Source: Verrucomicrobiota bacterium
GTDB taxonomy: Bacteria > Verrucomicrobiota > Verrucomicrobiia > Verrucomicrobiales > V1-33
Assembly (NCBI GenBank): GCA_031429155.1
Contig: JANOZA010000625.1
Location: 1-46,492, forward strand
Reading direction: 5' to 3'
Length of the DNA: 46,492 nucleotides
Shown: positions 5,504-31,196 of the stretch, in pieces
How the letters are laid out: each line of letters starts with the position of its first letter
How positions within the stretch are numbered: the stretch's first letter is position 1
Made by a program: the position numbers and the translations under genes
The notes under the pieces: generated by a model
The model's input: only the letters and a program-made list of their open reading frames with translations
Told to the model about the DNA's origin: nothing
Databases searched by the model: none

Positions 5504-5535
5504 CCTGAGACCGACTGGTAAAACTCAAATCAGCG

Positions 5536-5569: not shown

Positions 5570-5861
5570 ACGGCGGCAAGGAATTTCAATGTTGGCCGAG
5601 GACCGTTCCCCGGTGCTTACCCATCCGGATTTTTTAATATTTACTTCCCAAACGGCAGCCTTGGAGACAACGATTGCGGTGAAGCCTGCCCACTCGCCGA
5701 CCTGAAATGCATGGCCTCCGCAATCCAAGGGTCGTCGCCTTCACCGTTCATTGATCCGAAAATTCTACCAAGCCCTTTAATATCCAGCGAACACCCCACT
5801 GTTTTCGGCGTCTCTCTGGGCTATCAACGCTTATCCTTATTTCGCTCAAAAATCGAACTCC

Positions 5862-13476: not shown

Positions 13477-14739
13477 TCACCTTGCCGGCTCGGCTTTCAG
13501 CTTCGCCACCTGTGCGCGCAGCGCAGCCTGGGTCGCGGCCGGTTGTGTGGCGATCCAGGGTTCCAGTTGCGACTCGCGCCCATCGCGCACGCAGCGGTCC
13601 ACCACCTGGTGCATGGCGATAGTGCTCAGTTTCTGATCACCGATGCTGCTCCGGATTTCGTTCAGGAGCGCTGGTGCGTCGTCGAGCGGGCGGGCGGCAT
13701 AATGATTGGCCAAAAGCCAGTCGCGGTCTGCCTGCGAACGGTTCTGCACGGCGGCGAGGACGGCGGCGGTTTCCAGTTTGCCGAGTCCGGACATGCAGAA
13801 AGACGCATCATGGATCATGCGGGCGGTCTCCTCTGGCGTGCGGCGGGTGAACCACTCAAGGGCGGCCTGTGGCTCCCCGGTGCTGTAGTGATTGAGCAAC
13901 ATGCCGAGGTTGTCCTGCTTTCCGTCAGGCTCCATCGCCAGCGGCAGGGCGAGTTCGAGAAGCTGCCGCGGGTTCTTGTCGCCGTGAGTCATCATGAGGC
14001 TCAGCAGCACCTCACGTTTGCTCTCGTTGTCGGGGAGTTCGGAAAAGCGCGCGATGGCGGCGGCGGGGTCGGTGAGGCTCAGGCTGGCGAGACTCAGCGC
14101 GAGGCTTTTGCGGTGAATGTCAGGATCTTCGATGCTGCCGGTGAGCTGGGCGAGGAGTTCGGCATCTGAGCCGGCCAGGACCATGCCCGCGACACCGATG
14201 AAGCCGGCCTTCGCATTCGTATCCGGCTGCGCGTGAAACCACTTCAATGCCGCCGCGCGGTCGCGGATGAGCCAGTCGTGCATGATGAGATAGAACGCAC
14301 TGGAGTCCTCGTTCGTCCGTGCCAGCGCCCCTGCGTGTTTTATGGCCGCCAGGGGATCCAATTCCGCCAGCCGGGCGAGTGCGAACAGGGACGGGTCAAG
14401 CAGCTCATCGCCGGACTCGCTGCTCCCGCTTATGATGAGCGCCTCCAGTTCCGCGCGGCTGAGCCCGCGGATGTAGTCCGCCATCTCCAGAGTGCCGCGG
14501 AACATACTGCGCGCCGCGACGACCGCACTGCCATCCGCGCGGCGGAGCACAGACCTCAGCGGCATCGCAGGCTTCTGCTTCGCGGGGGAAACCGCAGCTT
14601 CCTTCCCCGCCGCCGCCGCCGTGGAAACGGCGGGCGTATTTAACTCCGCGCGCAGCGAGGCAACAGCACGCTGCTGCTGCCACCACAGGGCGGCGGCGAT
14701 GAGGGCGAAGAGGGTCAAAGTGGTGAGAAACGGGCGCAT
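13477..14739 (-). CDS. Membrane-anchored helical-repeat protein, paralogous to the C-terminal domain of the adjacent sigma-fusion protein and a possible sensor or anti-sigma partner
   Basis: The ATG at 14739 opens the N-terminal TM MRPFLTTLTLFALIAAALWW. The motif (D/E)PxAAxxW recurs (LAELDPLAAIKH, DRAAALKWFHAQPD, LTDPAAAIARFSELPD, GEPQAALEWFTRR). Confidence 0.6.
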   Translation of the reverse strand: MRPFLTTLTLFALIAAALWWQQQRAVASLRAELNTPAVSTAAAAGKEAAVSPAKQKPAMPLRSVLRRADGSAVVAARSMFRGTLEMADYIRGLSRAELEALIISGSSESGDELLDPSLFALARLAELDPLAAIKHAGALARTNEDSSAFYLIMHDWLIRDRAAALKWFHAQPDTNAKAGFIGVAGMVLAGSDAELLAQLTGSIEDPDIHRKSLALSLASLSLTDPAAAIARFSELPDNESKREVLLSLMMTHGDKNPRQLLELALPLAMEPDGKQDNLGMLLNHYSTGEPQAALEWFTRRTPEETARMIHDASFCMSGLGKLETAAVLAAVQNRSQADRDWLLANHYAARPLDDAPALLNEIRSSIGDQKLSTIAMHQVVDRCVRDGRESQLEPWIATQPAATQAALRAQVAKLKAEPAR

Positions 14740-17111: not shown

Positions 17112-17201
17112 GGCGCAGTGGTTTCCTCAACATGTCGCGCCCCGGCGAAATCCGACAAAGAATTTTGTGCCCGCGCTCCCGCAAAGGAGACTTTCCGCGG
17201 C

Positions 17202-19412
17202 TCAGTGCTGGAACAAAAACTCCCGGCTCGTGAGCAGGCTCCAGTATAAATCCTCCACGGCCTGCCGTTTCTCCTCCGGCTTGGTGGCGGCGAGCAGTTC
17301 CTCGAACTTCTTCCGCTGCTCGTCGCTGGCCGGGCGGCTCAGGCAAAGGCGGTAGGCCTCGTCTATGATCTCTGCTGGCGGCGGCTCAGCGGCGAGGACT
17401 TGCGTGACCCGTCCCGCTTTGGCCGAGAGTTTGTCATTCACGGTCGCGCCGTTGGAGAGGTGCAGCGCCTGCACGAGGCTTGGCTGGTTGGACCGTTCGC
17501 ACTCACAGGTGATCTCGCGGGCGTTGCGGCCGAATGTCTTGAGGAAGTAATTCTTCACCGCCGAGTCTTTGAGTTGCAGCGCGCGGGTCTCCGGCGCGTA
17601 GGCCGTCTTTTCGGTGGAGCCATCGTTGAGCGCGATTTCCGTGAATGACTCGCGCACGCCGGTCACGTCGGCGAGGGCATCGCTGAGCACTTCCGCACTG
17701 AGCCGTCGCGGGTAGTAGCGAGAGTAGAAGCGCCGGTCGTCTTTGTTCTCCGGCAGCGGTTCACTGCTGCGCCGATAAGTTTGCGAGGTCAGGATCAGGC
17801 GCATGAGTGACTTCAAATCATAGCGCTGCTTCACCAGGTAATCCGCCAGGGCGGCGAGGAGCTTTTCGTTGCTGGCTGGATTGGAAACCCGCAGATCATC
17901 CACGCTTTCGACGATGCCCGTGCTCATGAAATTTCCCCACACGCGATTGGCCACCGCGCGGGTGAAGTAAGGATTTTCCGGCGCGGTGAGCCATGCGGCC
18001 AGCGCCTCACGGCGGTCACGCTGATCGTCTATTGCCAGCGCCGGCGCATCCAGCGGCGCGGGCGGCTGCGGCTGGCCGGTGCGCGGCTGGATCAGTTCGC
18101 CGCGCTGCTCCACGTAGAGCGTGCGCACGCCGTCGCCGCTGCGCGGATCGCCGCCCCAGCCTTTGGCGCGCACGCGGCTGAAGAGATTGGCGAAGGCGTA
18201 GTATTGATCGTTCGTCCACTTCTCCAGCGGGTGATTGTGGCATTTCGCACAGCCGATGCTCAGTGAGAGAAACGCCTGGCTCACATTCTCCGCCATCGTC
18301 TCCGGATCCTGGTGCACCGCGAAAAAATTCGTCGCGCCGTTCTCCGTGGACGAGCCGCGCGCGGTCACGACCTCGCGCACCAGTTGATCCCACGGCAGAT
18401 TCGTCGCCACGCGGTCACGCAGCCAGTCGTAATAAGCCGAGACCGCCACGGGCCGCAGCTTGGAGCCGGTGACCAGCAGCACATCGCCCCACTTATAAGT
18501 CCAGAAGTCCACAAATTCCGGCCGCGCCAGCAGCAGGTCCGCCAGCCGTTCGTGTTTCTGCGGAGATTTGTCATCCACAAACGCCCGCACTTCCTCGGGT
18601 GTCGGCAGCCGGCCTATCGTATCCAGAAATGCCCGCCGCACGAACGTCGCATCGCCCGCCGCCGGTGACGGTTTGAGATGCAGCTTCTTCAACTGCTCCA
18701 ACACCAGTTCATCTACGAACCCCGCCCGTGGCGCTGCGGCATAGACTTCGTCCGGCACCTGATGCGGGAACGGTGACACGATCCGCGCGATTACGATCTG
18801 TGATGAAAACCACGCTGTCACCGCGCCTTCGCCATTTCCGATAACACTGACCTTTCCGCCGGCATCCACTGTCGCCACCGTCTCATCTGCTGACGTGAAC
18901 TTTACCCATCGGGTCACGTCGCGTTCCGCGCCGTTGGAAAATCTGGCCTTCACGGTGATCTGCTGCGACGCCCCCGGCTGCAACGCGCTCTCCGCAGGCG
19001 AAACCGTCAGCGCCGCAAGAGTGGCATCCTCCGCCCGCGGCGGCGGACAACCCGCCGTGATCCACTCCGCGATGATCTTGTAATCCTCCGAGCCAACCTC
19101 CAGCCGCTTCCCTCCCTTGTGCCGCAGCGCTGCCGTCGGCTTCAGCAGAATGAGACTGCTCCCCGGGTCCGAAAGCTCCACCCGCCGCCCGCGCGACTCT
19201 CGCGTGATGGTGAGCCAGTCCGCGTCAGGATTGTAGCCGAACAGCGAAAGCCGGAAGCCGCCCTTCCCCGCCAGCGCTCCGTGACAGCCGCCGGTGTTGC
19301 AGCCGGCCTTGCTGAGAATGGGCAGCACGTCATTGCGGAACGAGGGTTCGGCATGGGCGGATTCCACGCTGAAAGCCGAGAGGAAAATGAAGAGGATGCA
19401 GTGCCGGTTCAT
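17202..19412 (-). CDS. PSCyt2/DUF1549 - Big_2 - DUF1553 (PSD1) family protein
   Basis: The ATG at 19412 opens a signal peptide. The DUF1549 block is FRNDVLPILSKAGCNTGGCHG, the heme-like motif is CAKCHNHPLEKWTNDQYYAFANLF, and the C-terminal DUF1553-type tail is DLYWSLLTSREFLFQH. Confidence 0.9.
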   Translation of the reverse strand: MNRHCILFIFLSAFSVESAHAEPSFRNDVLPILSKAGCNTGGCHGALAGKGGFRLSLFGYNPDADWLTITRESRGRRVELSDPGSSLILLKPTAALRHKGGKRLEVGSEDYKIIAEWITAGCPPPRAEDATLAALTVSPAESALQPGASQQITVKARFSNGAERDVTRWVKFTSADETVATVDAGGKVSVIGNGEGAVTAWFSSQIVIARIVSPFPHQVPDEVYAAAPRAGFVDELVLEQLKKLHLKPSPAAGDATFVRRAFLDTIGRLPTPEEVRAFVDDKSPQKHERLADLLLARPEFVDFWTYKWGDVLLVTGSKLRPVAVSAYYDWLRDRVATNLPWDQLVREVVTARGSSTENGATNFFAVHQDPETMAENVSQAFLSLSIGCAKCHNHPLEKWTNDQYYAFANLFSRVRAKGWGGDPRSGDGVRTLYVEQRGELIQPRTGQPQPPAPLDAPALAIDDQRDRREALAAWLTAPENPYFTRAVANRVWGNFMSTGIVESVDDLRVSNPASNEKLLAALADYLVKQRYDLKSLMRLILTSQTYRRSSEPLPENKDDRRFYSRYYPRRLSAEVLSDALADVTGVRESFTEIALNDGSTEKTAYAPETRALQLKDSAVKNYFLKTFGRNAREITCECERSNQPSLVQALHLSNGATVNDKLSAKAGRVTQVLAAEPPPAEIIDEAYRLCLSRPASDEQRKKFEELLAATKPEEKRQAVEDLYWSLLTSREFLFQH

Positions 19413-19434
19413 GGAATCAGGAAAATCGGTATAA

Positions 19435-20262
19435 CTATTTTGCAGAAAGCGCAGAGCGCGGCGGCACCCATGCCCGCACGCCGCTCACAAACATCGTGTA
19501 GGGTTTTTTCTTCCCGTGGGTCTGCGCGCTGATGATCAGGTAAAAATGCTGCCGTGGCGCCACCGGCGGGACGAATGGCGCGCCGGCGCTCATCTGCCGC
19601 ACGCCGTCCAGCCACCATGTCACGGTTTGTTTCGCCGGGTCGTAGCTGCTGCCAAAGGTGTGCTTCTTCGTGCGGTCGAGGGCGGCGGGGGAGACGTTGT
19701 TCGGATTCTGAATCTGTTTTGTTTTCGGCCAGATACCCTCATGGCTGTGGACCGTCCCCGTCATGCCAGGACCGAAGCCGCCTTCATCAACGTCCAGTTC
19801 CATCCATCGCTGATAGCCCGGAGGATCGCCGGCATATTGATCGCGCATTTTAGTGTCATGCTCCGCCGGCATCAGCCAGACTGCCGGAAAGTGATCCGGG
19901 TCGTTGTCGGAGAGCCGCACATCGAACTCGACGTAGAAACCATCGGCACCCGCGAGCAGCGGGAGCTTGCCCGCAGAAAAGTCACGGGGAGCGCTCACGA
20001 GTTCGCCGTTCAGCGTCAGTGCGAGTTCGCCATTCTGCGTCGAGAAATGTTTGAGCGGCCGTGGCTGGTCCCACCACTGGCCGCTGAACCACTTGAAGTT
20101 TCCATTTACGCCCGGCGCGATATCGGCGGCGACGGGGCGCTCGTTGATCACACGTTTCGAGAAACCAAGAGCGGCGGCTCCGGGGGGAAGGGCGTCGGCC
20201 GCGGACAGGGGCTCCATGAGTCCCAAAACAGCGGGCACGATGCGAAGTATTGATGATCTCAT
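19435..20262 (-). CDS. Secreted ConA-like / glycoside hydrolase family 16-like protein
   Basis: The ATG at 20262 opens MRSSILRIVPAVLGLMEPLSA (signal). The blocks FPAVWLMPAEHD and WMELDVDEGGFG resemble the GH16 E-[LIV]-D-[LIVF]-x-E catalytic strand (partial match only). The gene is packed between the DUF1501 and PSD1 genes with gaps of 29 and 22 nt. Confidence 0.6.
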   Translation of the reverse strand: MRSSILRIVPAVLGLMEPLSAADALPPGAAALGFSKRVINERPVAADIAPGVNGNFKWFSGQWWDQPRPLKHFSTQNGELALTLNGELVSAPRDFSAGKLPLLAGADGFYVEFDVRLSDNDPDHFPAVWLMPAEHDTKMRDQYAGDPPGYQRWMELDVDEGGFGPGMTGTVHSHEGIWPKTKQIQNPNNVSPAALDRTKKHTFGSSYDPAKQTVTWWLDGVRQMSAGAPFVPPVAPRQHFYLIISAQTHGKKKPYTMFVSGVRAWVPPRSALSAK

Positions 20263-20291
20263 GGGGGGGATCGCGGGAGCAGGGCCGTTAC

Positions 20292-21683
20292 TCACACAAA
20301 CAATTCCCGGATCGGCTCTGTGCCCAGGTCCGTCAGCGAAAAAGGCCGACCGCCCGGTCCCGGCAGGTGGCCGGTGTGGTCCAGTCCGAGGCTGTGGAAT
20401 ATCGTCGCCACGATGTCGCCGGGGGCGACGGGACGTTCCGCAGGGAAGCCGCCCACGGGATCGCTCGCACCGACAACGCGCCCGCCTTTCACGCCGCCGC
20501 CGGCGAAGTAGGCGGTGAAGCAATTCGGCCAGTGGTCGCGTCCGCCGGCGGGATTCACCTTTGGCGTGCGGCCGAACTCGGCGAGGTTGGCCACGAGGGT
20601 GTCGCCGAGCAGGCCGCGCTGATTGAGGTCTTCGATGAGCGCGCTGTAGGCCTGGTCATACATCGGACAGACGATGTCCTTCATGCCCTCGATGCTTGTG
20701 AACGGCTTGCTGCCGTGAATGTCCCACGTGATTTCATCGAAGACGGTGAGGAAAGTGTTGATGGTCACAAAGCGCACGCCGTTCTCCACCAGACGCCGTG
20801 CGAGCAGACAGCACTGGCCAAAGCGGTTCATGCCGTAGCGGTCGCGCACGGCCTGCGGTTCTTTGCTCAAATCAAACGCCGAGCGCGCCTGCTCGCTGGT
20901 CATCATGCGGAAGGCCGCCTGGAAATTCTCGTCCATGAGGCGTGCGTCTTCGCTGGCTTCGAATTCCTTCACCGCACTCTCCACCACGTCGCGCATCTTG
21001 CGGCGGCGGTCCAAACGCGATGCGCCGATCTGGTCCGGCGGCAGCAGGTCGGGCACTTTGAAATCCTTCTGCGAAGGGTCGGCCATGAGCGCGAAGGGAT
21101 CGTGGGCCTTGCCGAGGAAGCCGCCGGCCTGACCGTTCGGCATATTGCCCCCGCCGCGGCCCATGAGTTGCGGGAGCACCACGAACGGCGGCAAATCCGT
21201 GCGCCGTCCGAGCAGATAGCTCGCCACCGCGCCCGCGTGCGGCGTGAAGATGCCGCCCGTAAATCGCCGGCCCGTCTGCATCATCTGCCAGCCGGCATCA
21301 TGCACCGCCGCGCCGTCATGATGGCAGGAGCGCACCAGCGAAAACTTGTCCGCGATCTTCGCGTGCAGCGGCAACAGTTCCGAAATCTCGAACGCATCCG
21401 ACTTCGTGCGGATCGGCATGAACGGCCCGCGGATTTCGCGCGGCGCATCGGGCTTCATGTCCCAGAGGTCAATGTGACTCGGCGCGCCCAGATTGAAGAT
21501 CATGATGCACGACCGCTTCTCGCAGCCGGCCCGCACTTTGCCCTCGGCGGCAGCGCGCACATACTGCGGCAGCGAAAGCCCGAGCGCCGAGAGCGCCCCG
21601 ATTTGCAGAAACTCGCGACGCGAACGTCCCGGGCCGCAGAGCCGGGCGTGGTCGTGAGGGGATTCAGCAAGAAAGTCGAACAT
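20292..21683 (-). CDS. DUF1501 (sulfatase-fold) protein with a Tat-type signal
   Basis: The N-terminus MFDFLAESPHDHARLCGPGRSRREFLQIGALSALGLSLPQY is a twin-arginine-like leader. IMIFNLGAPSHIDLWDMKPDAP and GGRDHWPNCFTAYFAGGGVKGG are typical DUF1501 blocks. Confidence 0.9.
   Translation of the reverse strand: MFDFLAESPHDHARLCGPGRSRREFLQIGALSALGLSLPQYVRAAAEGKVRAGCEKRSCIMIFNLGAPSHIDLWDMKPDAPREIRGPFMPIRTKSDAFEISELLPLHAKIADKFSLVRSCHHDGAAVHDAGWQMMQTGRRFTGGIFTPHAGAVASYLLGRRTDLPPFVVLPQLMGRGGGNMPNGQAGGFLGKAHDPFALMADPSQKDFKVPDLLPPDQIGASRLDRRRKMRDVVESAVKEFEASEDARLMDENFQAAFRMMTSEQARSAFDLSKEPQAVRDRYGMNRFGQCCLLARRLVENGVRFVTINTFLTVFDEITWDIHGSKPFTSIEGMKDIVCPMYDQAYSALIEDLNQRGLLGDTLVANLAEFGRTPKVNPAGGRDHWPNCFTAYFAGGGVKGGRVVGASDPVGGFPAERPVAPGDIVATIFHSLGLDHTGHLPGPGGRPFSLTDLGTEPIRELFV
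21316..21683. repeat. Direct repeat A1: the first 368 nt of the intact DUF1501 CDS, copied at 24307..24674
   Basis: My manual alignment at a constant offset of 2991 nt shows no indels and about 21 substitutions. Homology stops exactly at the start codon on one side and at the HHDG codons on the other. Confidence 0.9.
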
Positions 21684-21765
21684 GGCGGGAACTCATACGC
21701 CGGACGGCGGACGATTTCACCTCATTGTTGATCGTAACTTGTGGAAGCGAACGGCCAGACTGGCG

Positions 21766-22002
21766 TTACGGGGCCGTTTCCACCGTCACCTTGTAGAAAC
21801 AGCGCCGGCGCTGGCCGGAGTCGGTGCGTTCATCGTAGAGGGCGCCGGGGCCGGGGACTTCGTAGGTGTATTCGGAGAGGCGGTCCCAGGTGACGAGATC
21901 GGTGCTGCTTTCGAACACGTAGATCACGCCGGGGCGGACGGGATGGAGGCGCAGCACGCCGCCGGTCGGCTCAGGGCAGATCAAGAAGATCAAGAAGATC
22001 AA
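21766..22002 (-). pseudogene. Orphan C-terminal fragment of a secreted protein (tail domain only)
   Basis: The fragment reads ...GGVLRLHPVRPGVIYVFESSTDLVTWDRLSEYTYEVPGPGALYDERTDSGQRRRCFYKVTVETAP. It matches the RFYRV...S.DL..W tail seen at the ends of 2270..5503 and 5862..9044. In this frame a TGA lies only about 16 codons upstream, and there is no signal peptide or body. Confidence 0.45.
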
Positions 22003-22005
22003 GAG
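21979..22005. repeat. 9-bp tandem repeat x3 (gatcaagaa gatcaagaa gatcaagag)
   Basis: Read directly from the sequence. It gives LIFLIFLI or LDLLDLLDL in the two open minus-strand frames. Confidence 0.85.
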
Positions 22006-22121
22006 GCCCGGGCACTTGTTGCGAGTCGCAGCCGCCGCCGGCTTCGTGGCAGATCAAGTGGCCTTTGTCGCACCTGCGGCTGAATACTTCCTCCGTGCGG
22101 CCATACAGGTTGCTCATCGCA

Positions 22122-22449
22122 AATCCCCGGCTGCCGGGGCGCTTCGCCACCGGGCGGGTGGTGAGGCCATAGGCCCCGGCGATGCGCGATTCCCTGAGCA
22201 GGCAGGTGTGGGTCTCGATCTGTTCCGGCGGGGCAAGTTCAGAGGCGAATGGTTTCTGCGGGGTGAAGTTGCCCGGTGCCCGGTGGAATTGCGCGGGAAC
22301 GTGCGCGCCCGACAGCGGAGGCCTGCGCATACCGATCAAACAACGGAGAGCACGCCGCACATGCCGCTCAATGCCAGCGACTTCCTTAATTATTGGACTT
22401 CCTCAATTATTGATGTGGCCAGTTGCTTCTCGGTGGCCAGTTGCTTCTC
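22122..22449. repeat. Direct repeat R1 (~330 bp), a copy of R2 at 23706..24039
   Basis: It aligns with R2 at offset 1584, with about a dozen substitutions over the first ~260 nt. Its high-coordinate end carries two 18-bp motifs, each duplicated separately in the order A,A,B,B. Motif A is acttcct(t/c)aattattg(g/a) at 22380-22413. Motif B is (t/g)gtggccagttgcttctc at 22414-22449. Confidence 0.85.
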
Positions 22450-22562
22450 CGGTAGATGCGAAGGTGTGGGAGCGGCGAGATTTTACTTGCTTGCCTGCCG
22501 GGGGGCTGGCACCTTGCGCCAGTCGGAAGGTGAAATTCGGCTTCATGCCGTGTGATGCGGGG

Positions 22563-23423
22563 TTACGACTCCGCATCCTCTACCTTCCGACTTTTCATTT
22601 TCTCCAGGTCCAGCGGCGGGCGTTTGTGGGTGTGGTAGGTGCCGTAGGGCTTTTCCGATGTGTCATCGGCGTCCACGAGGAGCGCCACTTTTGGCCAGAT
22701 GAGGCTGAGATAGCGGTCTTCATTTCTCGAAAAGAGCCGCTGCACCGCCCACAGGCAATAGTCGGCCATCTGAAGACCGGCACTGGCTTTGGACGGCATG
22801 GCGCAGACCTCGACCATGGCGTCAGGATACGTTCCGGCTGCTTTGCGGGAATGCGCCTGAGCATGGAGCAGGTGCTCGCGGAGGGAGCGGGTTCTCGCCT
22901 TCCCGCGGCTGGCGAAGATGACTTTGTAGGCCGGCTGAGTGTGCAGCTTTTTGTCAAAGAGCCTCCGCACCGCGCTGTCATACAGTTCACTCGGCGCATA
23001 GCGGTAGGTCGGGTCGCGGTGATTGCGCGCTGCCACCCGGCGATGCACCGCAGACATGGTGCGAATGATTCCGTAAAAATTGAACTCGTGGCGCAGCAGC
23101 AGCTTGAACACCTCCCGCCGCACTTCGGGAACATCATCCTTCGCATGGAAAAACACCGCCGTCTTCTGATCCTCCGCCTGCATGGAGGGCACTCCTTTGA
23201 AGTAGGGATCCGCCAGCAGATCGGCACGCAGCTTCGTCAGATCCCGCTCCAGTCCCGGCAAGTCGCCACACTCGACCATCCCGAGAATGAAATGATCCTG
23301 CACCTGCCCCGTGCCAATGAGCACGCGGCCTTTGGAATCGAAAATCACGCCATCTCCGCTCTCATCCACAAAGTAGTGATGCGGCAGGAGTTCAGTCCGG
23401 GGAATGGTGATGGGGTCCATCAT
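22563..23423 (-). CDS. DUF3800 family protein
   Basis: The N-terminal HYFVDESGDG block (family-typical DESG) and the C-terminal AGLQMADYCLWAVQR block (family-typical LQ.AD) are present. I chose the ATG at 23423 (MMDPITIPRTELLPHHYFVDESG). The tracked ORF begins 17 codons upstream. Confidence 0.7.
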   Translation of the reverse strand: MMDPITIPRTELLPHHYFVDESGDGVIFDSKGRVLIGTGQVQDHFILGMVECGDLPGLERDLTKLRADLLADPYFKGVPSMQAEDQKTAVFFHAKDDVPEVRREVFKLLLRHEFNFYGIIRTMSAVHRRVAARNHRDPTYRYAPSELYDSAVRRLFDKKLHTQPAYKVIFASRGKARTRSLREHLLHAQAHSRKAAGTYPDAMVEVCAMPSKASAGLQMADYCLWAVQRLFSRNEDRYLSLIWPKVALLVDADDTSEKPYGTYHTHKRPPLDLEKMKSRKVEDAES

Positions 23424-23705
23424 GCAGTCTGCGCTCAGGATTGAGTGAGTCGCAGCAATGCTGCCGCCTCGCATTCTTCGATGGCGATTTCTACCGCGCG
23501 TTTGGCTTTTTCCAGCATGACATGGGCTTCATGGCGGGCAGTGTGGGCGGCGCGAATGATTTGGGTGATGGCGGCGGCGGTTTTGGTGTCGATGGCGGGG
23601 GACGGGGAGTTTGACGAGGTCGCGCTCGGAGATGGCGGGGTAGGGGCTGGCGCTGGTGTGAAACCAAGCGGGCTACGCAAGTTCCCAGGCAACTTCTCCA
23701 AACTG

Positions 23706-24039
23706 AATCCCCGGCTGCCGGGGCGCTTCGCCACCGGACGGGTGGTGAGGCCATAGGCCCTGGCGATGCGCGATTCCTTGAGCAGGCAGGTGTGGGTCTC
23801 GATCTGTTCCGGCGGGGCAAGTTCAGAGGCGGATGGTTTCTGCGGGGTGAAGTTGCCCGGTGCCCGGTGAAGTGGCGCGGGAACGTGCGCGCCCGACAGC
23901 GGAGGCCTGCGCGTACCGATCAAACTCCGGAGAGCACGCCGCACATGCCTCTCAATGCCAACGACTTCCTCAATTATTGGTGTGGCCAGTTGTTTCAGAG
24001 CCTCCTCAATTATTGGTGTGGCCAGTTGTTTCAGAGCCG
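23706..24039. repeat. Direct repeat R2, containing a perfect-frame 36-bp tandem duplication
   Basis: This is a copy of R1. The unit cctcaattattggtgtggccagttgtttcagagcc(t/g) occurs twice in tandem at 23968-24003 and 24004-24039. The same two motifs as in R1 are therefore arranged A,B,A,B. Confidence 0.85.
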
Positions 24040-24674
24040 GGAAACAAACCCGGGAGTATGTCATGAAGCGTTGAGCGCGGAACGCCGGCGGCGACGGTCT
24101 TGGAAGTGAGCAGACCAGTGCTGGCATCGCAGGCCCAGGTGGTGAGCGACGCATTGGCGGCGGTGCCGTTGAGGGCATCAGCTCCGGTGGTGTCGCGGTA
24201 GGTTTTCATTTCGGTCATCCAGCCGTTGGTGGCATCGTAAGTGTAGCGGACGGGGTAGTCGGCACTGCCGGTCTGCTCCGCCACCCGCCCGTGCAGATCA
24301 GACCCATCGTGATGGCAGGAGCGCACCAGTGAAAACTTGTCCGCGATCTTCGCATGCAGCGGCAGCAGCTCGGAAATCTCGAACGCATCCGACTTGGTGC
24401 GGATCGGCATGAACGGCCCGCGGATCTCGCGCGGCGCGTCCGGCTTCATGTCCCAGAGGTCAATGTGACTCGGCGCGCCCAGATTGAAGATCATGATGCA
24501 CGACCGTTTCTCGCAGCCGGCCCTTACCTTGCCCTCGGCGGCAGCGCGCACATACTGCGGTAGCGAAAGCCCGAGCGCCGAGAGCGCCCCGATTTGAAGG
24601 AACTCGCGACGCGAACGTCCCGGGCCGCAGAGCCGGGCGTGGTCGTTTTTGGATTCAGCGAGAAAGTCGAACAT
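24006..24674 (-). pseudogene. Chimeric remnant: the first 123 codons of a DUF1501 gene fused to a YD/RHS-repeat fragment
   Basis: Residues 1-123 are identical to the intact DUF1501 protein except SPH->SKN. After HHDG the sequence switches to SDLHGRVAEQTGSADYPVRYTYDATNGWMTEMKTYRD...LTTWACDASTGLLTSKT, which are YD-repeat units (YxYDxxG). It then runs into repeat R2 and stops. Confidence 0.75.
24307..24674. repeat. Direct repeat A2, a copy of 21316..21683
   Basis: See A1 (21316..21683). The flanks outside the repeat are unrelated on both sides. Confidence 0.9.
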
Positions 24675-24740
24675 AGTGCCCCCTTTCTACGCCGCCCGCG
24701 CCGTTTGGTATCTCCTTTTCCGTGGGCACGCGGCGCGGCG

Positions 24741-25101
24741 TTACTTAACTCTGACGGCGCGGAAGATCGTCGAGGTGCCGCTGACTTCATCGGCGATGAT
24801 ACCCAGCGGGCTGCCGTCCGCGGTGTCATCGGCTTTGATGAAGGCCATGCCTTCCGCTCCGGGGACGCCGGCGGGCGCAGCACAAGCGAGGCGGTGGTGG
24901 AGAAGTGGGGGGCTGATCCGCGCAGCCTCGCGCGGCAATTGTGGTGGCAGTGGCCTGCACCTTCTGGCCGACTTCGAAGACTTCGTTGGCATCTTTGACA
25001 AAGTGATCGGCCAACTGGCTGACGTGGACGAAACAACATAATCGCGGCCGGAAATCCGGCTCGACGACGCACTGACACTCTCCATGGAGCGCTGCTGACA
25101 T
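24741..25101 (-). pseudogene. Possible degraded S1 RNA-binding-domain gene remnant (frameshifted)
   Basis: One minus frame reads FVHVSQLADHFVKDANEVFEVGQKVQAT, a typical S1-domain core of the form GxVHxSqla..fV.d..ev..vGq.V. The expected ...RISLS continuation (REAARISPPLL) is in another frame. The N-terminal strand region looks shortened. No intact ORF covers the domain. Confidence 0.35.
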
Positions 25102-25130
25102 TTCTAACTCCGCGCAGAATACAACTCATC

Positions 25131-28100
25131 ATGACAAAACAAGAAACGATTTGGTTCGAGGCGTTGACGAAAGACCGGTTGGACAGTGCGTCCACTCTTG
25201 AGAAACCGTCCATGCGCGGCGTTCAGCGCAGCGTCGTGGACAAGTATTCCGACCAGGCGCATTTCGTCTATGAACTGCTACAAAACGCCGATGACGTGAA
25301 GGCGACAGAAGCGCGGTTTGAGTTGAAGGAAAATGGCTTGGTGTTCAAACACAACGGGACAACGCATTTTACTATCTCCGATCCGGCTACCGAGGACTCG
25401 GATTCGGGGAACGGCACGCTGGGGCATGTCAATTCGATCACGTCCATTGCCAACTCAAACAAGACACAAGCCTCCATCGGCAAATTCGGTGTCGGTTTTA
25501 AGGCGGTTTTTCAATACACGAGAACACCGCACATCTACGACCCCAACTTTCGCTTCAAACTCGAACGGTTTATCGTCCCGAGAGAACTGAAGGATAATTT
25601 TTCGCGACGCGAGGCATCCGAGACCGTATTCTGGTTCCCATTCGACCACGAAAGGAAATCCAAGGCGGAGAGCCACTCCGACATCTCCGAAAAGTTGAAA
25701 TCTCTCGTCTTCCCGGTTCTGTTCCTCTCGAATCTGGAATCCGTTTCATTCGATGCTGGCGGGCTGACCGGCCAATATTCCAAGAAGATTTCTAAAACCC
25801 AAACGGCTTACGGGATGACCGCCCGGCTGATCAGCCTCGTTTCCGAAACGAACGGGCGGAAGAACAATCAAAAACTCTGGCTGTTTACAAGAGAATGCGA
25901 AGAAGGTGGACATCCCTCTTATTCGATCGGGTTCTTCCTGAAAAACGGAGACCTGACGCCTGTCAGCCATCCCGCGTTCTGCTTTTTCCCCACCAAGGAG
26001 GCCACGAACCTCAACTTCATTCTACACGGGCCGTTCCTGCTGACCGACAGCCGTGAGGGCATCAAAGCGGGCGAGGAGTGGAACCGCGAACTAATCCAAA
26101 AACTGGCTGCGCTCGCGGCGGACAGCCTGCTGTTTCTTCGAGACAGGAAGCTCGTCACTGATGGCATCATCGGAATCATTCCCTACGCCAGGTTGGAATT
26201 CACGGATATTGCCGACCGCGAAAAAATCTCGTTTAAACCCTTTTATACTGCGATTGAGCAGAAATTTCAATCCGAGGAACTCTTGCCAGCGACGAATGCG
26301 CAGTATTGCTTGAAACGGCGTGCCTATTGGGCTTCCAACACGAAATTGGTTGCCCTTTTTTCGGATGCCCAACTTTCACTTTTGACTGGCACACCCAATG
26401 CGCACTGGGTGTTCCCGAGCCTTGGCAAGGAGGCTCTCAACTCTAATAAGGCACTCTTGGATTACATTGACGGCGGCAGTGGGCATGATTGGAACTATCG
26501 TCCTCCCAATCTCATTGTTCAAAGTCTTGACCCGGAAGCCCTGCTGAAGAAGATCTCAAAGGATTTTATTGAGGCGCAGCCGCAAAAGTGGCTTCATTCG
26601 CTTTACCTTTACCTAGCGGAACGTCAATCCTATCAGAAATGCGTCAGACCTAAACCAATTTTCCTCGATCAGGATGGAAACGCTGTTCCGGCTTATGACG
26701 AAAACGATCAACTCGTGCTGTTCCTACCGGACGACGACATCGACGGCTACACCACGATCAAGCGGCAAATGCTTTCCAACAAGGCGACACGTGAGTTCGT
26801 TGAAACGTTCGGTGTCAAACAGCCCAGCTTGCGCGATGAAATCTACAACAAAATCCTCCCAGCCTACGACACCAGCGAGGGGATCGACACAACTCCACAC
26901 TTCCAAAAGTTTTTCCGCTACTTCAAGGAGTGTCGGAACGAGGATGTGCCGTCATTCATCGGGCGCATCAAAGGCAAGGCGTTCCTGCTCTGTAAATCGG
27001 CGGACGATGAAAAGGAGTTTCGAGGCAGAGCCTCTGACATCTACATGCCGACTGATGATTTAAAAGCTTGGTTCGCAAACAAGCCTGACACCAGGTTTCT
27101 GCAATTGGATAGGTATCGGGAATTGGTGGGAGAAAGGGATCTTGACAAACTTGAAGACCTTCTGCGTCAATTGGGCGTTCGCCGATTCCCAGCCGTACAC
27201 TACAGGGAACTGGACCGGGGAGAAGCAGCGCGCATTGGGGCGGCCGGAATGATTAGGGGCCATTCTCACAAATGGACAGACAAATACATCGAGGGTTGCG
27301 CGCAACGGATTGCGGAAATTGACGCTCGAGCATCACTGCTGATGTGGAGAATGCTGCCCGAACTACTTCCGTTTTTGAATGGTGAGCATCAATGGATTTA
27401 CTCCTATAAGCCGCGGAATGAAATATTCACATCCAGCGAAACAAAGAGGTTGCGGACGGCGAAATGGATTCTCAACAAGGATGGGAACTTTGTTTCGGCA
27501 GATGATGTGACACTCCAGTCCCTATCGGAGCAGTACGACCATTCGAGCGACAGAGCGTCAGGCCTCATAAAATATTTACAGATCCGTGACGAGGCGCAGG
27601 ACAGTTCCCATCTGAACGACGACGAAAAGCGTCAAATTGAAGTCGGCAAAATGGCCGAGGCGGCGGGTCTTACTCCGGCGGAAGCGAAACTGGCGCTTGA
27701 GGAAGCCGCTAGAAAAAAATCGACACGGACCGTGCCGGCGAGGATCGACGCCAACGATGGAGGTGCAAACGGTGGAGAGAAAGGTGCACCGCCCGGTGAA
27801 GCTGGGCCGGACAACACAAGCGCCCTTCCATCTCAGCCGACCGCAGGGTTATCGAAGCTCGAACAAGACATTCTGGCACGGGTTCAAGCGCATAAGATTC
27901 GGAGAGGCGAGGACGGGACGGCGAATCGTGTGGCACCGGCTCATTCGGAAGTCGATTCGAGTGACCAGAAAGAGCCGGCCGAGATAGAAGACTCGGACGA
28001 CTATACTCCCCGTCCGGTGGATTACGGGAAGACGATTGAGCGCGCCAAGGAGCGCAACGCGACTGAGATCAGCGGATTGGAGCATAAGCAGGAACTGCTC

Positions 28101-29984
28101 GACAAGGCCAACTCCCTGCCCAAATACAGCTACGGATGGTTTCTCGCCCTGCTCGAATTGGAGTGTATGGCCAACGACGAAAAGAATGCGGACGGGAAGA
28201 CCATCTCCATCAGCTTCGGCAGAATCGAAAAGGATGAGCAATCGCCAAAGTCCATTGTCCTGAAGGAACCAAACCGCTTCATTCCGCAGTCCATCGAAGA
28301 GATTTCCGGCGGGCGCGTTGACATTGACTTCGCTGATGGTGCCAAGAAGAAGCTGCATATCGAGTCTTTCACGGCCAGGGAGTTCTCGCTGCTCGGCAAA
28401 CTGAAATCCGCGGACGAGTTGAAGGGGATTGATTTGAGCAAGATACTGGAGGCACGCATCAAGGTCCAGAATCCGTCATTCCTGTTACGCTCGTTGCTGG
28501 AGGGTTTCAGGGGATTGGGCCTCCAAGAGACGTTCGACATGAAGGCTAACTTGACGCCGGAAATTGAATTTGTCTTCGGGCCGCCCGGCACCGGGAAGAC
28601 GACGCATCTGGCGGAGAAAGTCTTGATCCCTTTGATGCGCGGAACTGGAAAGACCAGGGTGCTGGTCCTGACGCCGACCAACAAAGCCGCCGATGTGCTG
28701 ACCACCCGAATTATGGAGACAATGGGTGCGGACACATCTTACCAGAAATGGCTGGTCCGCTTCGGAACCTGTTCGGACGACCGGATCGAAGCGTCCGGGT
28801 TGTGGCGAGACCGCTCATTCAATTTCGGCGCATTAAACCGTTCCGTGACGGTCACCACCATTGCCCGTTTCGCCTACGATGGTTTTGCGATGGAACACGG
28901 CAAACTGCATGAATTGAAGTGGGACGCCATCGTCATCGATGAGGCGTCCATGATTCCGCTCGTCAACATTGTCTATCCACTCTACCAGCGGAAGCCGCGA
29001 AAGTTCATCATCGCCGGCGACCCTTTCCAGATCGAACCGATTGTCGCCGTCGAAATCGAGGGTTGGAAGGACGCGAACATCTATACGCTGGTCGGACTCG
29101 ACAAACCGGGTTCCTTCACGCATCCCGTCACGGAGCCGCACAACTATGCAGTGACGAATCTGGAGACCCAATATCGAAGCATCCCAGCCATCGGCGAGGT
29201 CTTCAGCCGCTTCACCTACAACGGCATTCTCAAACACCATCGGCCAACCGAAGCACAACGTCCATTGAAAGTCGATGGCATGGATGTCCGTCCCGTCAAT
29301 CTCATCAAGTTCCCGGTCAGCAGGTATGAGAGCATCTACAGGGCAAAACGTTTGGCCAGCGGGACGCCCTACCAGACGTATTCCGCCCTGTTCACCTTCG
29401 AGTTTGTCAGGTGGCTGGCTGGGCAAATTCAGAAGAACCACGCAGGGGAGCCGCGGTTCCGCATCGGCATCATCGCCCCCTACCGCGCCCAGGCGAACCT
29501 GTTGGAAAAACTGAACGACTCCTGGGCAGCCAAACCGGACAGTGTGGTGATCCAGGTCGGCACCATTCACGGCTTCCAGGGTGACGAGTGTGACATCATC
29601 ATCGCCGTCCTTAACCCGCCGCCAACTATCTCCAAAAGTCCGCAAATGTTCCTCAACAAGCAGAACATCCTCAATGTGGCCATTAGCCGTGCGAGGGACT
29701 GGCTCTTCATCATCATGCCAGACAAGCAGACGGAGAACATTCACAACCTGCGCAAGGTAGCCACAATCGAAAGACTTGTGAGAAGCGGCGGTGCGTTCAA
29801 AGAATATGACGCACATGCGGTAGAGAAAGTGATTTTCGACAATGATCGCTATCTTGAGGAGAAGACCTTTTCGACGGGGCATCAGATGGTGAACGTTTAT
29901 GTCAAGCCGGAGCGCCACTATGAGGTCCGCAGTGATGATTCGGCGATTGATGTGCAGATACACGGAAAGGACTTACATTACTGA
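25131..29984 (+). CDS. 1617-aa fusion protein: N-terminal sacsin/NO-VEIN-type GHKL (Bergerat-fold) ATPase, long uncharacterised middle region, and C-terminal Upf1/DNA2-like SF1 helicase
   Basis: The start is the ATG at 25131. GHKL motif I is FVYELLQNADDV (E48/N52/D55, nt 25272-25295), and the Gly-rich motif is IGKFGVGFKAVF (nt 25479-25505). Helicase motifs are Walker A GPPGTGKT (aa 1150-1157, nt 28578-28601), VLTPTNKAAD, VIDEASM (nt 28932), AGDPFQIEP (nt 29016), TQYRS (nt 29169), APYRAQ, HGFQGDECDIII (nt 29571) and NVAISRARDWLFII (nt 29673). An acidic/Gly/Pro-rich linker lies at about aa 835-960. Codon composition is visibly AT-richer than in neighbouring genes. Confidence 0.9.
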   Translation: MTKQETIWFEALTKDRLDSASTLEKPSMRGVQRSVVDKYSDQAHFVYELLQNADDVKATEARFELKENGLVFKHNGTTHFTISDPATEDSDSGNGTLGHVNSITSIANSNKTQASIGKFGVGFKAVFQYTRTPHIYDPNFRFKLERFIVPRELKDNFSRREASETVFWFPFDHERKSKAESHSDISEKLKSLVFPVLFLSNLESVSFDAGGLTGQYSKKISKTQTAYGMTARLISLVSETNGRKNNQKLWLFTRECEEGGHPSYSIGFFLKNGDLTPVSHPAFCFFPTKEATNLNFILHGPFLLTDSREGIKAGEEWNRELIQKLAALAADSLLFLRDRKLVTDGIIGIIPYARLEFTDIADREKISFKPFYTAIEQKFQSEELLPATNAQYCLKRRAYWASNTKLVALFSDAQLSLLTGTPNAHWVFPSLGKEALNSNKALLDYIDGGSGHDWNYRPPNLIVQSLDPEALLKKISKDFIEAQPQKWLHSLYLYLAERQSYQKCVRPKPIFLDQDGNAVPAYDENDQLVLFLPDDDIDGYTTIKRQMLSNKATREFVETFGVKQPSLRDEIYNKILPAYDTSEGIDTTPHFQKFFRYFKECRNEDVPSFIGRIKGKAFLLCKSADDEKEFRGRASDIYMPTDDLKAWFANKPDTRFLQLDRYRELVGERDLDKLEDLLRQLGVRRFPAVHYRELDRGEAARIGAAGMIRGHSHKWTDKYIEGCAQRIAEIDARASLLMWRMLPELLPFLNGEHQWIYSYKPRNEIFTSSETKRLRTAKWILNKDGNFVSADDVTLQSLSEQYDHSSDRASGLIKYLQIRDEAQDSSHLNDDEKRQIEVGKMAEAAGLTPAEAKLALEEAARKKSTRTVPARIDANDGGANGGEKGAPPGEAGPDNTSALPSQPTAGLSKLEQDILARVQAHKIRRGEDGTANRVAPAHSEVDSSDQKEPAEIEDSDDYTPRPVDYGKTIERAKERNATEISGLEHKQELLDKANSLPKYSYGWFLALLELECMANDEKNADGKTISISFGRIEKDEQSPKSIVLKEPNRFIPQSIEEISGGRVDIDFADGAKKKLHIESFTAREFSLLGKLKSADELKGIDLSKILEARIKVQNPSFLLRSLLEGFRGLGLQETFDMKANLTPEIEFVFGPPGTGKTTHLAEKVLIPLMRGTGKTRVLVLTPTNKAADVLTTRIMETMGADTSYQKWLVRFGTCSDDRIEASGLWRDRSFNFGALNRSVTVTTIARFAYDGFAMEHGKLHELKWDAIVIDEASMIPLVNIVYPLYQRKPRKFIIAGDPFQIEPIVAVEIEGWKDANIYTLVGLDKPGSFTHPVTEPHNYAVTNLETQYRSIPAIGEVFSRFTYNGILKHHRPTEAQRPLKVDGMDVRPVNLIKFPVSRYESIYRAKRLASGTPYQTYSALFTFEFVRWLAGQIQKNHAGEPRFRIGIIAPYRAQANLLEKLNDSWAAKPDSVVIQVGTIHGFQGDECDIIIAVLNPPPTISKSPQMFLNKQNILNVAISRARDWLFIIMPDKQTENIHNLRKVATIERLVRSGGAFKEYDAHAVEKVIFDNDRYLEEKTFSTGHQMVNVYVKPERHYEVRSDDSAIDVQIHGKDLHY

Positions 29985-30309
29985 ACAATCCCGACTCATT
30001 CTGGAAGCCATCGCCAAAGGCCACAGCTACGAGCAAATCCTCGTGCAGGAACTGGCTTGGACCTATCACGACATCTTCGCCGCCGCCGCGGAGGCTCTGG
30101 CGTTGGATGTCGGGGACGATGCCGAAGGAAAGGCATACTCAGTCACCGACATCCGCCATGAACACGCACAGGCCTACGTGAAGTGGGACGCCGTGCAGGA
30201 TGACGAACTGCGCACGCACTTCCGCGCCGGTCGGAGCGTGGAGGAAATCGCCCGCCTCATGCAGCGCCAGCCGGGCGGCATCCGCAGCCGGCTGGAGAAG
30301 CCGGGATAG
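29950..30309 (+). CDS. Small protein with two helix-turn-helix-like segments, overlapping the 3' end of the GHKL-helicase gene
   Basis: The ATG at 29950 overlaps the upstream gene by 35 nt, which suggests translational coupling. One HTH-like segment is ITEQSRLILEAIAKGHSYEQILVQEL (LuxR/sigma-r4-like). The other is WDAVQDDELRTHFRAGRSVEEIARLMQRQPGGIRSRLEK (SANT/sigma-r4-like). The start codon choice is uncertain, since the tracked ORF begins at 29899. Confidence 0.55.
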   Translation: MCRYTERTYITEQSRLILEAIAKGHSYEQILVQELAWTYHDIFAAAAEALALDVGDDAEGKAYSVTDIRHEHAQAYVKWDAVQDDELRTHFRAGRSVEEIARLMQRQPGGIRSRLEKPG

Positions 30310-30490
30310 GAATGAGCCGACTGCGGCCCGCGGCTGCGGGGCGTTTGCCCATGCTGCGGGAATTCGGTGAGCGGCAGGCGCGGTCCGGGGGGGTCGCTCT
30401 TCGGAAAAGAGATAGGGCCTCTATTTTAACGTCAGGATGGCACTGTTATCCGATGTTTCTTTCTGATACCAACCCTTAGAGGTGATATTA

Positions 30491-30714
30491 CCCACCCCTG
30501 TAGGTGGTTTAAGGTACCCCTGGAGGTACCTTTACCAGACTTCCTGCTCCGTGAAGGATCCCCAAGGGGTACCTTTACCAGACTATTTGCTCCGATTTAG
30601 GACCCCAAAGGCCCCCTCCACCCACCCCTGGGGGTGCCCCGGGGGGTGCCTGAGGGGTACGAATGGGTACCCTTTGGGGTACGATTACCTTCCTAAAACA
30701 TCTGGCATCGTACC
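30491..30714. repeat. Non-coding array of short direct and inverted repeats built around GGTAC(C/G) cores
   Basis: GGTACC occurs at 30513, 30525, 30568 and 30666. GGTACG/CGTACC occurs at 30656, 30678 and 30709. There are two 27-nt direct repeats, GGTACCTTTACCAGACTTCCTGCTCCG (30525-30551) and GGTACCTTTACCAGACTATTTGCTCCG (30568-30594). CCCACCCCTG occurs at 30491 and 30621. An inverted pair is CCCCAAGGGGTACC (30560-30573) / GGGTACCCTTTGGGG (30665-30679). Confidence 0.7.
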
Positions 30715-30791
30715 TATAGGGGTTCGGTTTCGGAAAATAATATCGGGTATTCTCCATTGTGGAGGTCAAGCATCAGAATAAAATAGCGGGC

Positions 30792-31196
30792 ATGAGTGAT
30801 CCAGAGCAGCCATTAGCGCCCGCAGAGGCCGGGCATTCCAGCCCCATGGAGACGCCGGGGAGCGTGGAGGTTTTGCCGGGGATTCCCAATTTTGTGCCGC
30901 GGAAGGATCCGGTGGTGACGGCGCGGTTTTTTGCGGCGCTGGGTAATGAGCAGCGGTGGGAGATGGTGCGGAAGCTGGCGGATGGCCGGGCGATGTCGGC
31001 GACCCACATGGCGAAGGCGTTGAAGCGGGATGCGGACATGGTGAGCAAGCATCTGCGGGTGCTGTGGCGCGCGGGGGTGGTGCGCTCGCAGCGCGGGGAC
31101 GATGAGCGGATGAAGCTGTTTTACATCCCCGCGGAAAACCGCCCGGAGCCGGGGGTGCTGGTGTGGGGCATTGTGCGCGTGGATTTGCGGCCCTGA
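30792..31196 (+). CDS. ArsR/winged-helix family transcriptional regulator
   Basis: The block RFFAALGNEQRWEMVRKLADGRAMSATHMAKALKRDADMVSKHLRVLWRAGVVRSQRGDDERMKLFYI is an ArsR-type wHTH layout. I chose the ATG at 30792. An upstream GTG at 30759 is also possible. Confidence 0.7.
   Translation: MSDPEQPLAPAEAGHSSPMETPGSVEVLPGIPNFVPRKDPVVTARFFAALGNEQRWEMVRKLADGRAMSATHMAKALKRDADMVSKHLRVLWRAGVVRSQRGDDERMKLFYIPAENRPEPGVLVWGIVRVDLRP

Follow-up and report, generated by a model that had tools for sequence, protein, structure and literature searches.

A Tiamat-related protein joining a sacsin-type ATPase to an Upf1-like helicase, probably an anti-mobile-element defence protein, on a Verrucomicrobiota contig

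We analysed a stretch of 46,492 nucleotides (nt) of Verrucomicrobiota DNA (GenBank assembly GCA_031429155.1, contig JANOZA010000625.1, positions 1 to 46,492 of the forward strand; hereafter the window), in which an earlier note, made from the sequence alone, had pointed to one very long gene as a candidate conflict or defence module. This gene (25131..29984, +) is a single unbroken open reading frame (ORF) of 1,617 codons, in the ORF listing and in our translation of the window alike, as the note had said, and encodes a protein of 1,617 amino acids (aa), here called the giant protein, that joins a sacsin-type GHKL ATPase to an Upf1-like helicase of superfamily 1B (SF1B). The reading of two ATPases in one chain was borne out by motifs, profiles and folds. 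The further remark that the architecture could not be placed in any named system no longer stands, as aa 1-823 correspond to the TmtA module of Tiamat and the helicase resembles MkoA and MkoC of Mokosh. We conclude that the giant protein is an uncharacterised Tiamat-related variant, probably serving in defence against mobile elements.

Tiamat is an anti-phage system encoded by a single gene, whose product is TmtA (Millman et al., 2022, as listed by PADLOC and DefenseFinder). The first 823 residues of the giant protein (25131..27599, +), a sacsin-type GHKL ATPase followed by a conserved alpha/beta extension of about 500 aa, are, judged by profile matches, alignments and a structure model, one module homologous to TmtA (hereafter the N-module). 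The PADLOC model TmtA PDLC03972 matched it with an E-value of 8.5e-43, aligning aa 35-815 with profile positions 34-767 of 1302, a partial coverage that may not meet calling thresholds, and eight further PADLOC TmtA models matched it as well (nine in all). In BLASTP searches, aa 12-806 aligned with a plasmid-borne Sulfuricurvum protein named "DUF3883 domain-containing protein" (E=8e-55), which itself matches TmtA at E=2.5e-83 and whose gene is placed between a NERD gene and qatABCD, and aa 1-823 aligned with a GmrSD_N+DUF7834 fusion protein (P0260, E=2e-117). In the AlphaFold2 (AF2) model, the predicted local distance difference test score (pLDDT) was mostly 80-95 across aa 160-830, and the invariant residues of aa 330-823 are chiefly aromatic or hydrophobic.

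Within the N-module, the Bergerat-fold ATP-binding core occupies aa 33-136 (25227..25538, +), with motif I YELLQNADDV at aa 47-56 (E48, N52, D55) and the Gly-rich motif GKFGVGFKA at aa 117-125 (loop G117-G122). The earlier note had recognised these motifs as sacsin-flavoured at the same residues, and the family scores agree: 46.7 bits for Pfam SACS on aa 33-136 (cut-off 32.8) and 69.6 bits for NCBIfam NF047352 (P_loop_sacsin, "sacsin N-terminal ATP-binding-like domain"; cut-off 50). The closest solved structure for the N-terminus by sequence is the sacsin SR1 domain, with whose crystal-structure sequence the core aligns residue by residue, and a Foldseek search with the model of aa 1-850 also gave SR1 as its best match (5v44, probability 1.0, E=3.5e-3), the remaining matches being weak ones to the N+M domains of Hsp90/GRP94. 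No HATPase_c_3, MutL, MORC or S5 family was found in the giant protein with Pfam (E<=0.1). Membership in MORC/paraMORC was ruled out on the absence of HATPase_c_3 and S5 matches and on structural matches that run from sacsin to weak Hsp90/GRP94 ones.

The C-terminal part, aa 965-1540, is by sequence and model a complete Upf1/Sen1/IGHMBP2-like core that is Mokosh-helicase-like too, and 5'->3' activity is predicted for it. It opens with two long "stalk" helices and a six-stranded beta-barrel (aa 965-1130; 28023..28520, +), recognised from the AF2 model (pLDDT 60-85), Foldseek and strong conservation, and continues with the RecA1/RecA2 core of an SF1B helicase (aa 1140-1540; 28548..29750, +). The complete Upf1/DNA2-type motif set that the earlier note had described in the last ~470 aa (GPPGTGKT, VIDEAS, GDPFQIEP, QYRS, PYRAQ, GFQGDECD, NVAISRAR) was confirmed, with GPPGTGKT at aa 1150-1157 (Walker A lysine K1156), DEAS at aa 1270-1273 and motifs III-VI following; both the GHKL and the helicase motifs are invariant or nearly so among 35 aligned full-length homologues. 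Pfam matches to AAA_11 (57.1 bits) and AAA_12 (84.8 bits), both above their cut-offs, and to AAA_19 span aa 1141-1528, and the NCBIfam IGHMBP2-family helicase model gave a partial match. Among Protein Data Bank (PDB) sequences searched with phmmer, the closest to the C-terminus were UPF1 (E=5e-11), IGHMBP2, Sen1 and Dna2. The Foldseek search with aa 951-1617 (model mean pLDDT 59) retrieved Upf1 (2xzo, E=2e-17) as well as Sen1, IGHMBP2, SETX and Dna2, over 650-690 columns, and the PADLOC Mokosh helicase models MkoA PDLC03920 (E=2e-38) and MkoC (E=2.5e-21) matched aa 1260-1528.

Between the two enzymatic halves lies a variable linker of about 140 aa (aa ~824-963; 27600..28019, +), acidic and rich in glycine and proline as the earlier note had described it, which has no majority residue over most of its length in the consensus and is the sole long non-conserved stretch of the protein. 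The ~800 aa between ATPase and helicase for which that note could name no motif are thus mostly explained, aa 330-823 belonging to the Tiamat-type module and aa ~965-1130 being the stalk and barrel of the helicase. We also looked for a hidden nuclease in aa 330-1140 and found none with Pfam, NCBIfam, PADLOC or a whole-chain Foldseek search against the PDB, although a small diverged fold could escape such a whole-chain search. The protein ends in a conserved tail of 77 aa (aa 1541-1617; 29751..29981, +), modelled with low confidence and giving no Pfam match, in which numerous polar residues are invariant (E1576, H1584, N1588, E1598, R1600, D1607, Q1609).

We searched for homologues of the full protein and retrieved 2,309 homologous protein clusters at E<=1e-10, of which the best 120 are nearly all close to full length (1,502-1,732 aa) and 57-66% identical to the query. 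The complete GHKL + helicase architecture is therefore common on sequence grounds, with more than 2,300 protein clusters in many phyla. Sources include Leptolyngbya, Pirellulaceae, Morganella morganii, Methylomicrobium, Acidobacteria, Bryobacteraceae and Paceibacterota, and the homologues from Cyanobacteria, Morganella, Acidobacteria, Bacteroidota and Paceibacterota are about 60% identical to the giant protein. A scan of 185,579 reference genomes (one genome per species) found a family member in at least 207 species, with full-length copies in Bacillota, Bacteroidota, Spirochaetota, Desulfobacterota, Thiotrichaceae and Planctomycetota. Among 50,697 phage records there was a single partial match, so that the family is essentially absent from phage genomes. 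Homologues bear public names such as "DEAD/DEAH box helicase", "ATP-binding protein", "AAA domain-containing protein" or "hypothetical" and no others, and PADLOC v2.0.0 holds no model covering the whole GHKL + helicase architecture.

A second, exhaustive search with aa 1-1130 as query returned 3,960 representative clusters. The helicase is present in about 84 of the best 150, and the rest of these carry a histidine-kinase-type HATPase_c, GmrSD_N+DUF7834 or unrecognised domains after the linker position; every alternative C-terminal module of the relatives starts after the linker. Because differing C-termini follow the identical linker position, the N-module is best described as a portable unit with interchangeable C-terminal outputs, a conclusion drawn from alignments. 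Relatives of the N-module that end in a histidine-kinase-type HATPase_c or in GmrSD_N+DUF7834 are P0224, P0226, P0242, P0263 and P0260. One further homologue of 1,732 aa (P0087) carries HsdM_N and N6_Mtase domains besides, and is either a true type I methylase fusion or a merged gene call.

The gene differs in composition from its surroundings, as the earlier note had estimated by hand. Its GC content is 53.3% against 63.4% (standard deviation 1.4, minimum 60.5; z=-7.4) in 127 other windows of equal size, and GC at third codon positions (GC3) is 0.66 against 0.73-0.82 in neighbouring genes. In 200-nt windows, GC drops from 0.60-0.66 to 0.51-0.52 at about position 25000, and the low-GC tract (~25.0-30.0 kb), which has sharp edges, is the giant gene alone; its 5' edge coincides with the untranslated leader (25000..25130, +), in which no convincing sigma-70 consensus was found, and promoter and terminator scans gave sites no commoner than in shuffled sequence. 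At 51 of the 64 homologous loci compared, the family gene likewise has a higher AT content than the sequence flanking it. Since foreign composition goes together with about 60% identity across unrelated phyla (57-66% among the best homologues), horizontal acquisition, which the earlier note had proposed, is supported, and the gene would be a single-gene family member that inserted solo into the window. The absence of an adjacent methyltransferase, integrase or recognisable nuclease, also remarked on in the note, was confirmed for ORFs within ~5 kb. An ORF on the opposite strand that overlaps the start of the gene (24524..25213, -) was dismissed as spurious, since it matches no family and resembles other sequences only through the reverse frame of the conserved N-terminus.

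The genomic neighbourhoods of the homologues were then surveyed. No conserved housekeeping neighbourhood was found among the homologous loci surveyed; copies lie instead on plasmids, on integrative or conjugative elements and beside restriction-modification (R-M) and other defence genes. In Morganella the gene sits in an island with an integrase, AlpA, transposases, Peptidase_U49, CTD10/MC6 and dynamin-like genes; in Methylomicrobium a transposase and a TacAT toxin-antitoxin module are nearby, and at a further locus (L092) an integrase and an excisionase-like gene. In an acidobacterium (L091) the gene lies immediately 3' of a type IV secretion system (T4SS) operon, in Leptolyngbya (L090) it adjoins ParAB and TraG, and in Chryseobacterium and Hymenobacter it is plasmid-borne. 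The Chryseobacterium plasmid pA2BH1 (L086, record 16465-28842) has five same-strand genes, encoding in order a type III Mod, a small ORF resembling a restriction endonuclease (REase), a type III Res, the GHKL-helicase and a UvrD-like helicase into which a DEDDh exonuclease is inserted; together they may form a composite defence operon. Among the nearest neighbours (109 further ORFs), PADLOC matches were obtained to mad3, Nhi/AbiO, type I, IIG and III R-M, DrmA/DrmD, BrxH, HmaA and LmuB. The conflict or defence role put forward in the earlier note is the best reading of these neighbourhoods and stays a prediction.

PDC-S68, a RecD-like PADLOC single-gene candidate of 1,200-1,300 aa, is the sole recurrent neighbour. 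Of the 68 loci that could be evaluated, 12 have it next to the family gene, so the GHKL-helicase family is not always solitary. In eight of them (L010, L015, L016, L020, L027, L037, L040, L048) it lies in tandem, upstream on the same strand and separated by 14-136 nt, and in four (L031, L055, L075, L092) it is nearby. The pairing spans two PDC-S68 subfamilies mutually only 25-33% identical and divergent GHKL-helicase subclades, which suggests an undescribed two-gene system. A search of the window revealed no PDC-S68 gene. The giant protein was also considered as a PDC-S68 member itself and this was ruled out, as it matches the profile only locally, over a P-loop (aa 1147-1304, E=6.9e-9), whereas true PDC-S68 proteins score above 1,400 bits over their full length. 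In the literature, we found no paper describing a GHKL + Upf1 fusion or PDC-S68, nor one joining TmtA and Tiamat as whole words, and Tiamat does not yet appear in the 2022 preprint of Millman et al.

A small helix-turn-helix (HTH) gene adjoins the 3' end of the giant gene and lies outside the conserved module (29950..30309, +). The earlier note had reported a 119-aa HTH ORF overlapping the giant gene by 35 nt and coupled to it. The ORF is real, its length depending on the start chosen (136 aa from the ATG at 29899; 124 aa from 29935, the length on record for P0271; 119 aa from 29950). The coupling did not survive comparison: the gene was rejected as a conserved partner, being found beside none of ~90 homologous loci and host-like in composition (GC 0.64 and GC3 0.78 in its non-overlapping part), and it belongs to an independent family of ~116 aa with 196 homologues in Verrucomicrobiota and Planctomycetota. 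In a tblastn search against 92 homologous loci, the small ORF gave nothing beyond out-of-frame matches to the conserved 3' end of the family gene and a single, unrelated match of 41 aa. Its closest homologues start with "M-TEKSRLILEAI"; the window codon at that M is ATT, and the triplets ATT ACT GAA also hold the TGA stop of the giant gene. As the canonical start is ATT here and the only upstream ATGs that remain lie inside the giant gene, the 35-nt overlap is best taken as a junction effect and not as evolved coupling.

The small HTH gene is informative for its position. Across 46 loci, the ORF directly upstream of it is hypervariable and rich in defence or toxin functions: six Methylase_S, three Dam-type methyltransferases, two N6_Mtase, one MmeI-type IIG enzyme, three PIN, two NERD and two NucS-like genes, besides single cases of HNH, SIR2, GmrSD, patatin and zeta toxin. 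The upstream gap is often <=22 nt on the same strand (loci L093-L147), and in three of four long contigs the HTH gene lies 1-8 nt 3' of type I R-M genes. This family may act generically as a regulator of defence cargo or as its anchor, and the giant gene, which fills the same slot, thereby gains independent positional support as defence cargo. A trio of genes 3' of the small HTH gene was considered as a partner set and dismissed, as it occurs at two loci only and not in the window. These are type I R-M loci (L093 7357-9233 and L096 3275-5157), where the trio encodes proteins of 212/294, 115 and 211 aa and resembles an anti-sigma/anti-anti-sigma-like module; the 212/294-aa protein matches HATPase_c weakly in L096, no such match being recorded for L093, and the 115-aa protein of L093 has DUF4325.

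Taken together, the N-module held in common with validated Tiamat, the horizontal mobility and the defence or mobile-element neighbourhoods lead us to consider that the giant gene encodes a Tiamat-related protein for defence against mobile elements (phages or plasmids), a role to which we give somewhat better than an even chance, and to hold any mechanism with considerably less confidence. GHKL ATPases such as MutL, MORC and Hsp90 undergo ATP-driven dimerisation and serve as clamps or switches; MutL, for one, loads the SF1 helicase UvrD and activates it. Upf1-like SF1B motors move 5'->3' on RNA or DNA, stripping proteins or unwinding hybrids. By analogy, the GHKL module could be an ATP-gated sensor or clamp that dimerises around invader-derived nucleic acid or protein, and the clamp might then position or license the tethered 5'->3' motor, with MutL-UvrD as its nearest functional analogy. 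The motor would unwind or strip invader DNA, RNA or RNA:DNA hybrids, and degradation would be left to nucleases in trans, namely PDC-S68 where adjacent, R-M enzymes or host nucleases. In its broadest form, which we advance tentatively and rate well short of even, the ~820-aa sacsin-type module would be a general invader-sensing chassis with interchangeable outputs (the REase-fold nuclease of Tiamat, a GmrSD-type nuclease, a kinase-type ATPase or an Upf1-like motor). The helicase form would then provide immunity without a nuclease, an ATP-gated GHKL clamp directing a 5'->3' RNA/DNA helicase to take apart replication or transcription intermediates of phages or plasmids, with PDC-S68 as an optional recipient.

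Several points weigh against the defence role and this mechanism. The literature lists the mechanism of Tiamat as unknown, so that homology gives a role and not a mechanism. That sacsin-type domains bind ATP is not yet on firm ground, and aa 78-157, the ATP-lid region, were modelled at low confidence. No nuclease or other killing effector was found in the protein (Pfam, Foldseek) or beside the gene in the window. Several homologues are solitary amid housekeeping genes, two of them with metabolic surroundings in planctomycete-type genomes; tRNA synthetases and ABC transporters are also among the nearest neighbours, and the neighbour counts stand without a random-gene control and rest on PADLOC profiles that also match generic helicases and methyltransferases. 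Location on conjugative elements, lastly, equally fits a function that serves the element.

That no nuclease was detected in cis speaks for one rival explanation, in which the protein is half of a multi-component system whose partner carries the nuclease (the RecD-like PDC-S68 or an adjacent R-M enzyme), and the window copy is an orphan, either inactive or dependent on an unlinked partner. The recurrence of PDC-S68 in tight same-strand tandem with divergent subfamilies is what this would predict, and the Chryseobacterium copy inside a type III R-M/helicase operon and the methylase domains of P0087 point the same way. Yet about 80% of loci have no PDC-S68, among them the window and, of four other loci looked up in the ~60%-identity clade, three (L092 has one), and the solo copies are full-length with all catalytic motifs intact, which argues for autonomous function under selection; we regard this explanation as unlikely. 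Ranked next, and likewise improbable in our estimation, is that the protein works for the mobile element on which it resides and not for host immunity, through anti-restriction or anti-defence, protection or processing of incoming conjugative DNA, or competition with rival elements. The T4SS operon in the acidobacterium, ParAB/TraG in Leptolyngbya, the two plasmids and the near absence from phage genomes are all in keeping with such a service, but many copies, that of the window included, are chromosomal with no transfer genes nearby, conjugative elements commonly carry defence systems as cargo, and the N-module is common to a validated anti-phage family.

Both halves of the protein are homologous to eukaryotic housekeeping proteins, sacsin being a chaperone and Upf1/Sen1/IGHMBP2 acting in RNA quality control and R-loop removal, and some copies lie amid metabolic genes, so that a housekeeping role in RNA/DNA surveillance or as a chaperone was also weighed. 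The patchy spread (matches in at least 207 species across the 185,579 reference genomes), the foreign composition with ~60% identity between phyla, the lack of a conserved neighbourhood and the carriage on mobile elements all speak against it, and we consider it very improbable. Defence against mobile elements by a Tiamat-related protein thus stays the reading that we prefer.

The family is more placeable and less exotic than the earlier note supposed, yet it is widespread and unstudied. A portable Tiamat N-module with swappable outputs provides a concrete handle for separating sensor from effector when dissecting a validated defence system. The helicase-bearing form is abundant, including in Morganella and in gut Bacteroidota and Bacillota, and defence-annotation tools may miss it because of its generic annotation. 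The recurrent PDC-S68 pairing suggests a two-gene system that can be tested, and a sacsin-type ATPase from bacteria, coupled to an evident enzymatic partner, could inform the biochemistry of human sacsin. If the chassis proposal were true, the helicase form would amount to a prokaryotic equivalent of Upf1/Sen1-type surveillance and offer a tractable system for studying that biochemistry.

We also recorded other features of the window. The rearrangement scar that the earlier note had located at 21.3-24.7 kb was recovered as nested direct repeats, an outer pair (21313-21612 / 24304-24603, 94% identical) and an inner pair (22122-22396 / 23706-23980, 95% identical), which stand beside the giant gene and have the look of serial insertions. 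The outer repeat duplicates the 5' part of a DUF1501 gene, of which a truncated copy is left at 24006..24674 (-), and the inner repeats flank a DUF3800 gene (22563..23474, -) with a PADLOC DUF3800_VII match. At the edge of the 275-nt repeat, a 36-nt unit, TCCTCAATTATTGGTGTGGCCAGTTGTTTCAGAGCC, is perfectly duplicated in tandem (23967-24038), with an 81% copy at 22400-22435. The repeat array noted at 30.5-30.7 kb exists and is modest, consisting of two 43-nt copies (30511-30596, 77% identical) with GGTACC-type palindromes. They lie in an AT-richer intergenic stretch (30480-30720) with several GGTACC or GGGGTACC palindromes, which may be an operator array; a winged-helix gene just 3' of it (30759-31196) has Pfam HVO_A0114/HTH_20 and Csa3-like PADLOC matches. 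Elsewhere, ARAGORN called an unusually long tRNA-Asn(GTT) of 94 nt (14606-14699, -) inside or at the end of the ORF 13477..14739 (-), which may reflect an insertion or a false call, and a second, milder GC dip is present at 5001-6000 (0.56 against ~0.62-0.65).

Compared with known proteins, the giant protein shares with the sacsin repeat regions (SRR) and with plant NO VEIN the motif I (ELLQNADD) and the GxFGxGF loop, scores above the SACS and P_loop_sacsin cut-offs and has SR1 as its best structural match; it differs in that only ~105 residues align by sequence, in lacking Ubl, DnaJ and HEPN domains, and probably in its role. With Upf1, Sen1 (SETX), IGHMBP2 and Dna2 it has in common the full motif set, the fold and the accessory stalk and beta-barrel, and it differs from them in being bacterial, horizontally mobile and fused to a GHKL module, without the CH domain of Upf1 or the nuclease domain of Dna2. 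MutL-UvrD and prokaryotic MORC/paraMORC also bring a GHKL ATPase and an SF1/SF2 helicase together on DNA, often in restriction or defence neighbourhoods (PMC2292703; PMC3710099); here, in contrast, both activities are in one chain, the GHKL ATPase is of the sacsin clade and not of that of MutL or MORC, and the helicase is SF1B (5'->3'), not SF1A.

The two closest named systems are Mokosh and Tiamat. Mokosh (type I, MkoA/MkoB; type II, MkoC), in which the ATPase site of an Upf1-like helicase is needed for defence, shares with the giant protein a COG1112-type SF1B helicase of the Upf1-like kind, but has no GHKL module, and the profile matches reach no further than the RecA2-proximal part of the Mokosh models; conversely, the giant protein has no phospholipase D (PLD) nuclease in cis or within ~5 kb, whereas Mokosh has one as a fusion or as the product of a neighbouring gene, and no Ser/Thr kinase domain, a feature of type I MkoA. 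With Tiamat, it shares the whole ~820-aa N-module, that is the sacsin-type GHKL ATPase with its conserved extension, as well as the organisation as a large single polypeptide and the location in defence islands. Tiamat is classed among single-gene PD-(D/E)XK systems, DUF3883 being an REase-fold nuclease domain. No DUF3883 or other nuclease family was found in the giant protein with Pfam (E<=0.1), and Foldseek searches of aa 1-850 and 951-1617 gave only sacsin/Hsp90 and Upf1-like folds. The two proteins thus part at the point where the match ends (profile position 767 of 1302), the C-terminal REase-fold nuclease (DUF3883 / PD-(D/E)XK) of Tiamat being replaced in the giant protein by the linker and an Upf1-like helicase of ~650 aa.

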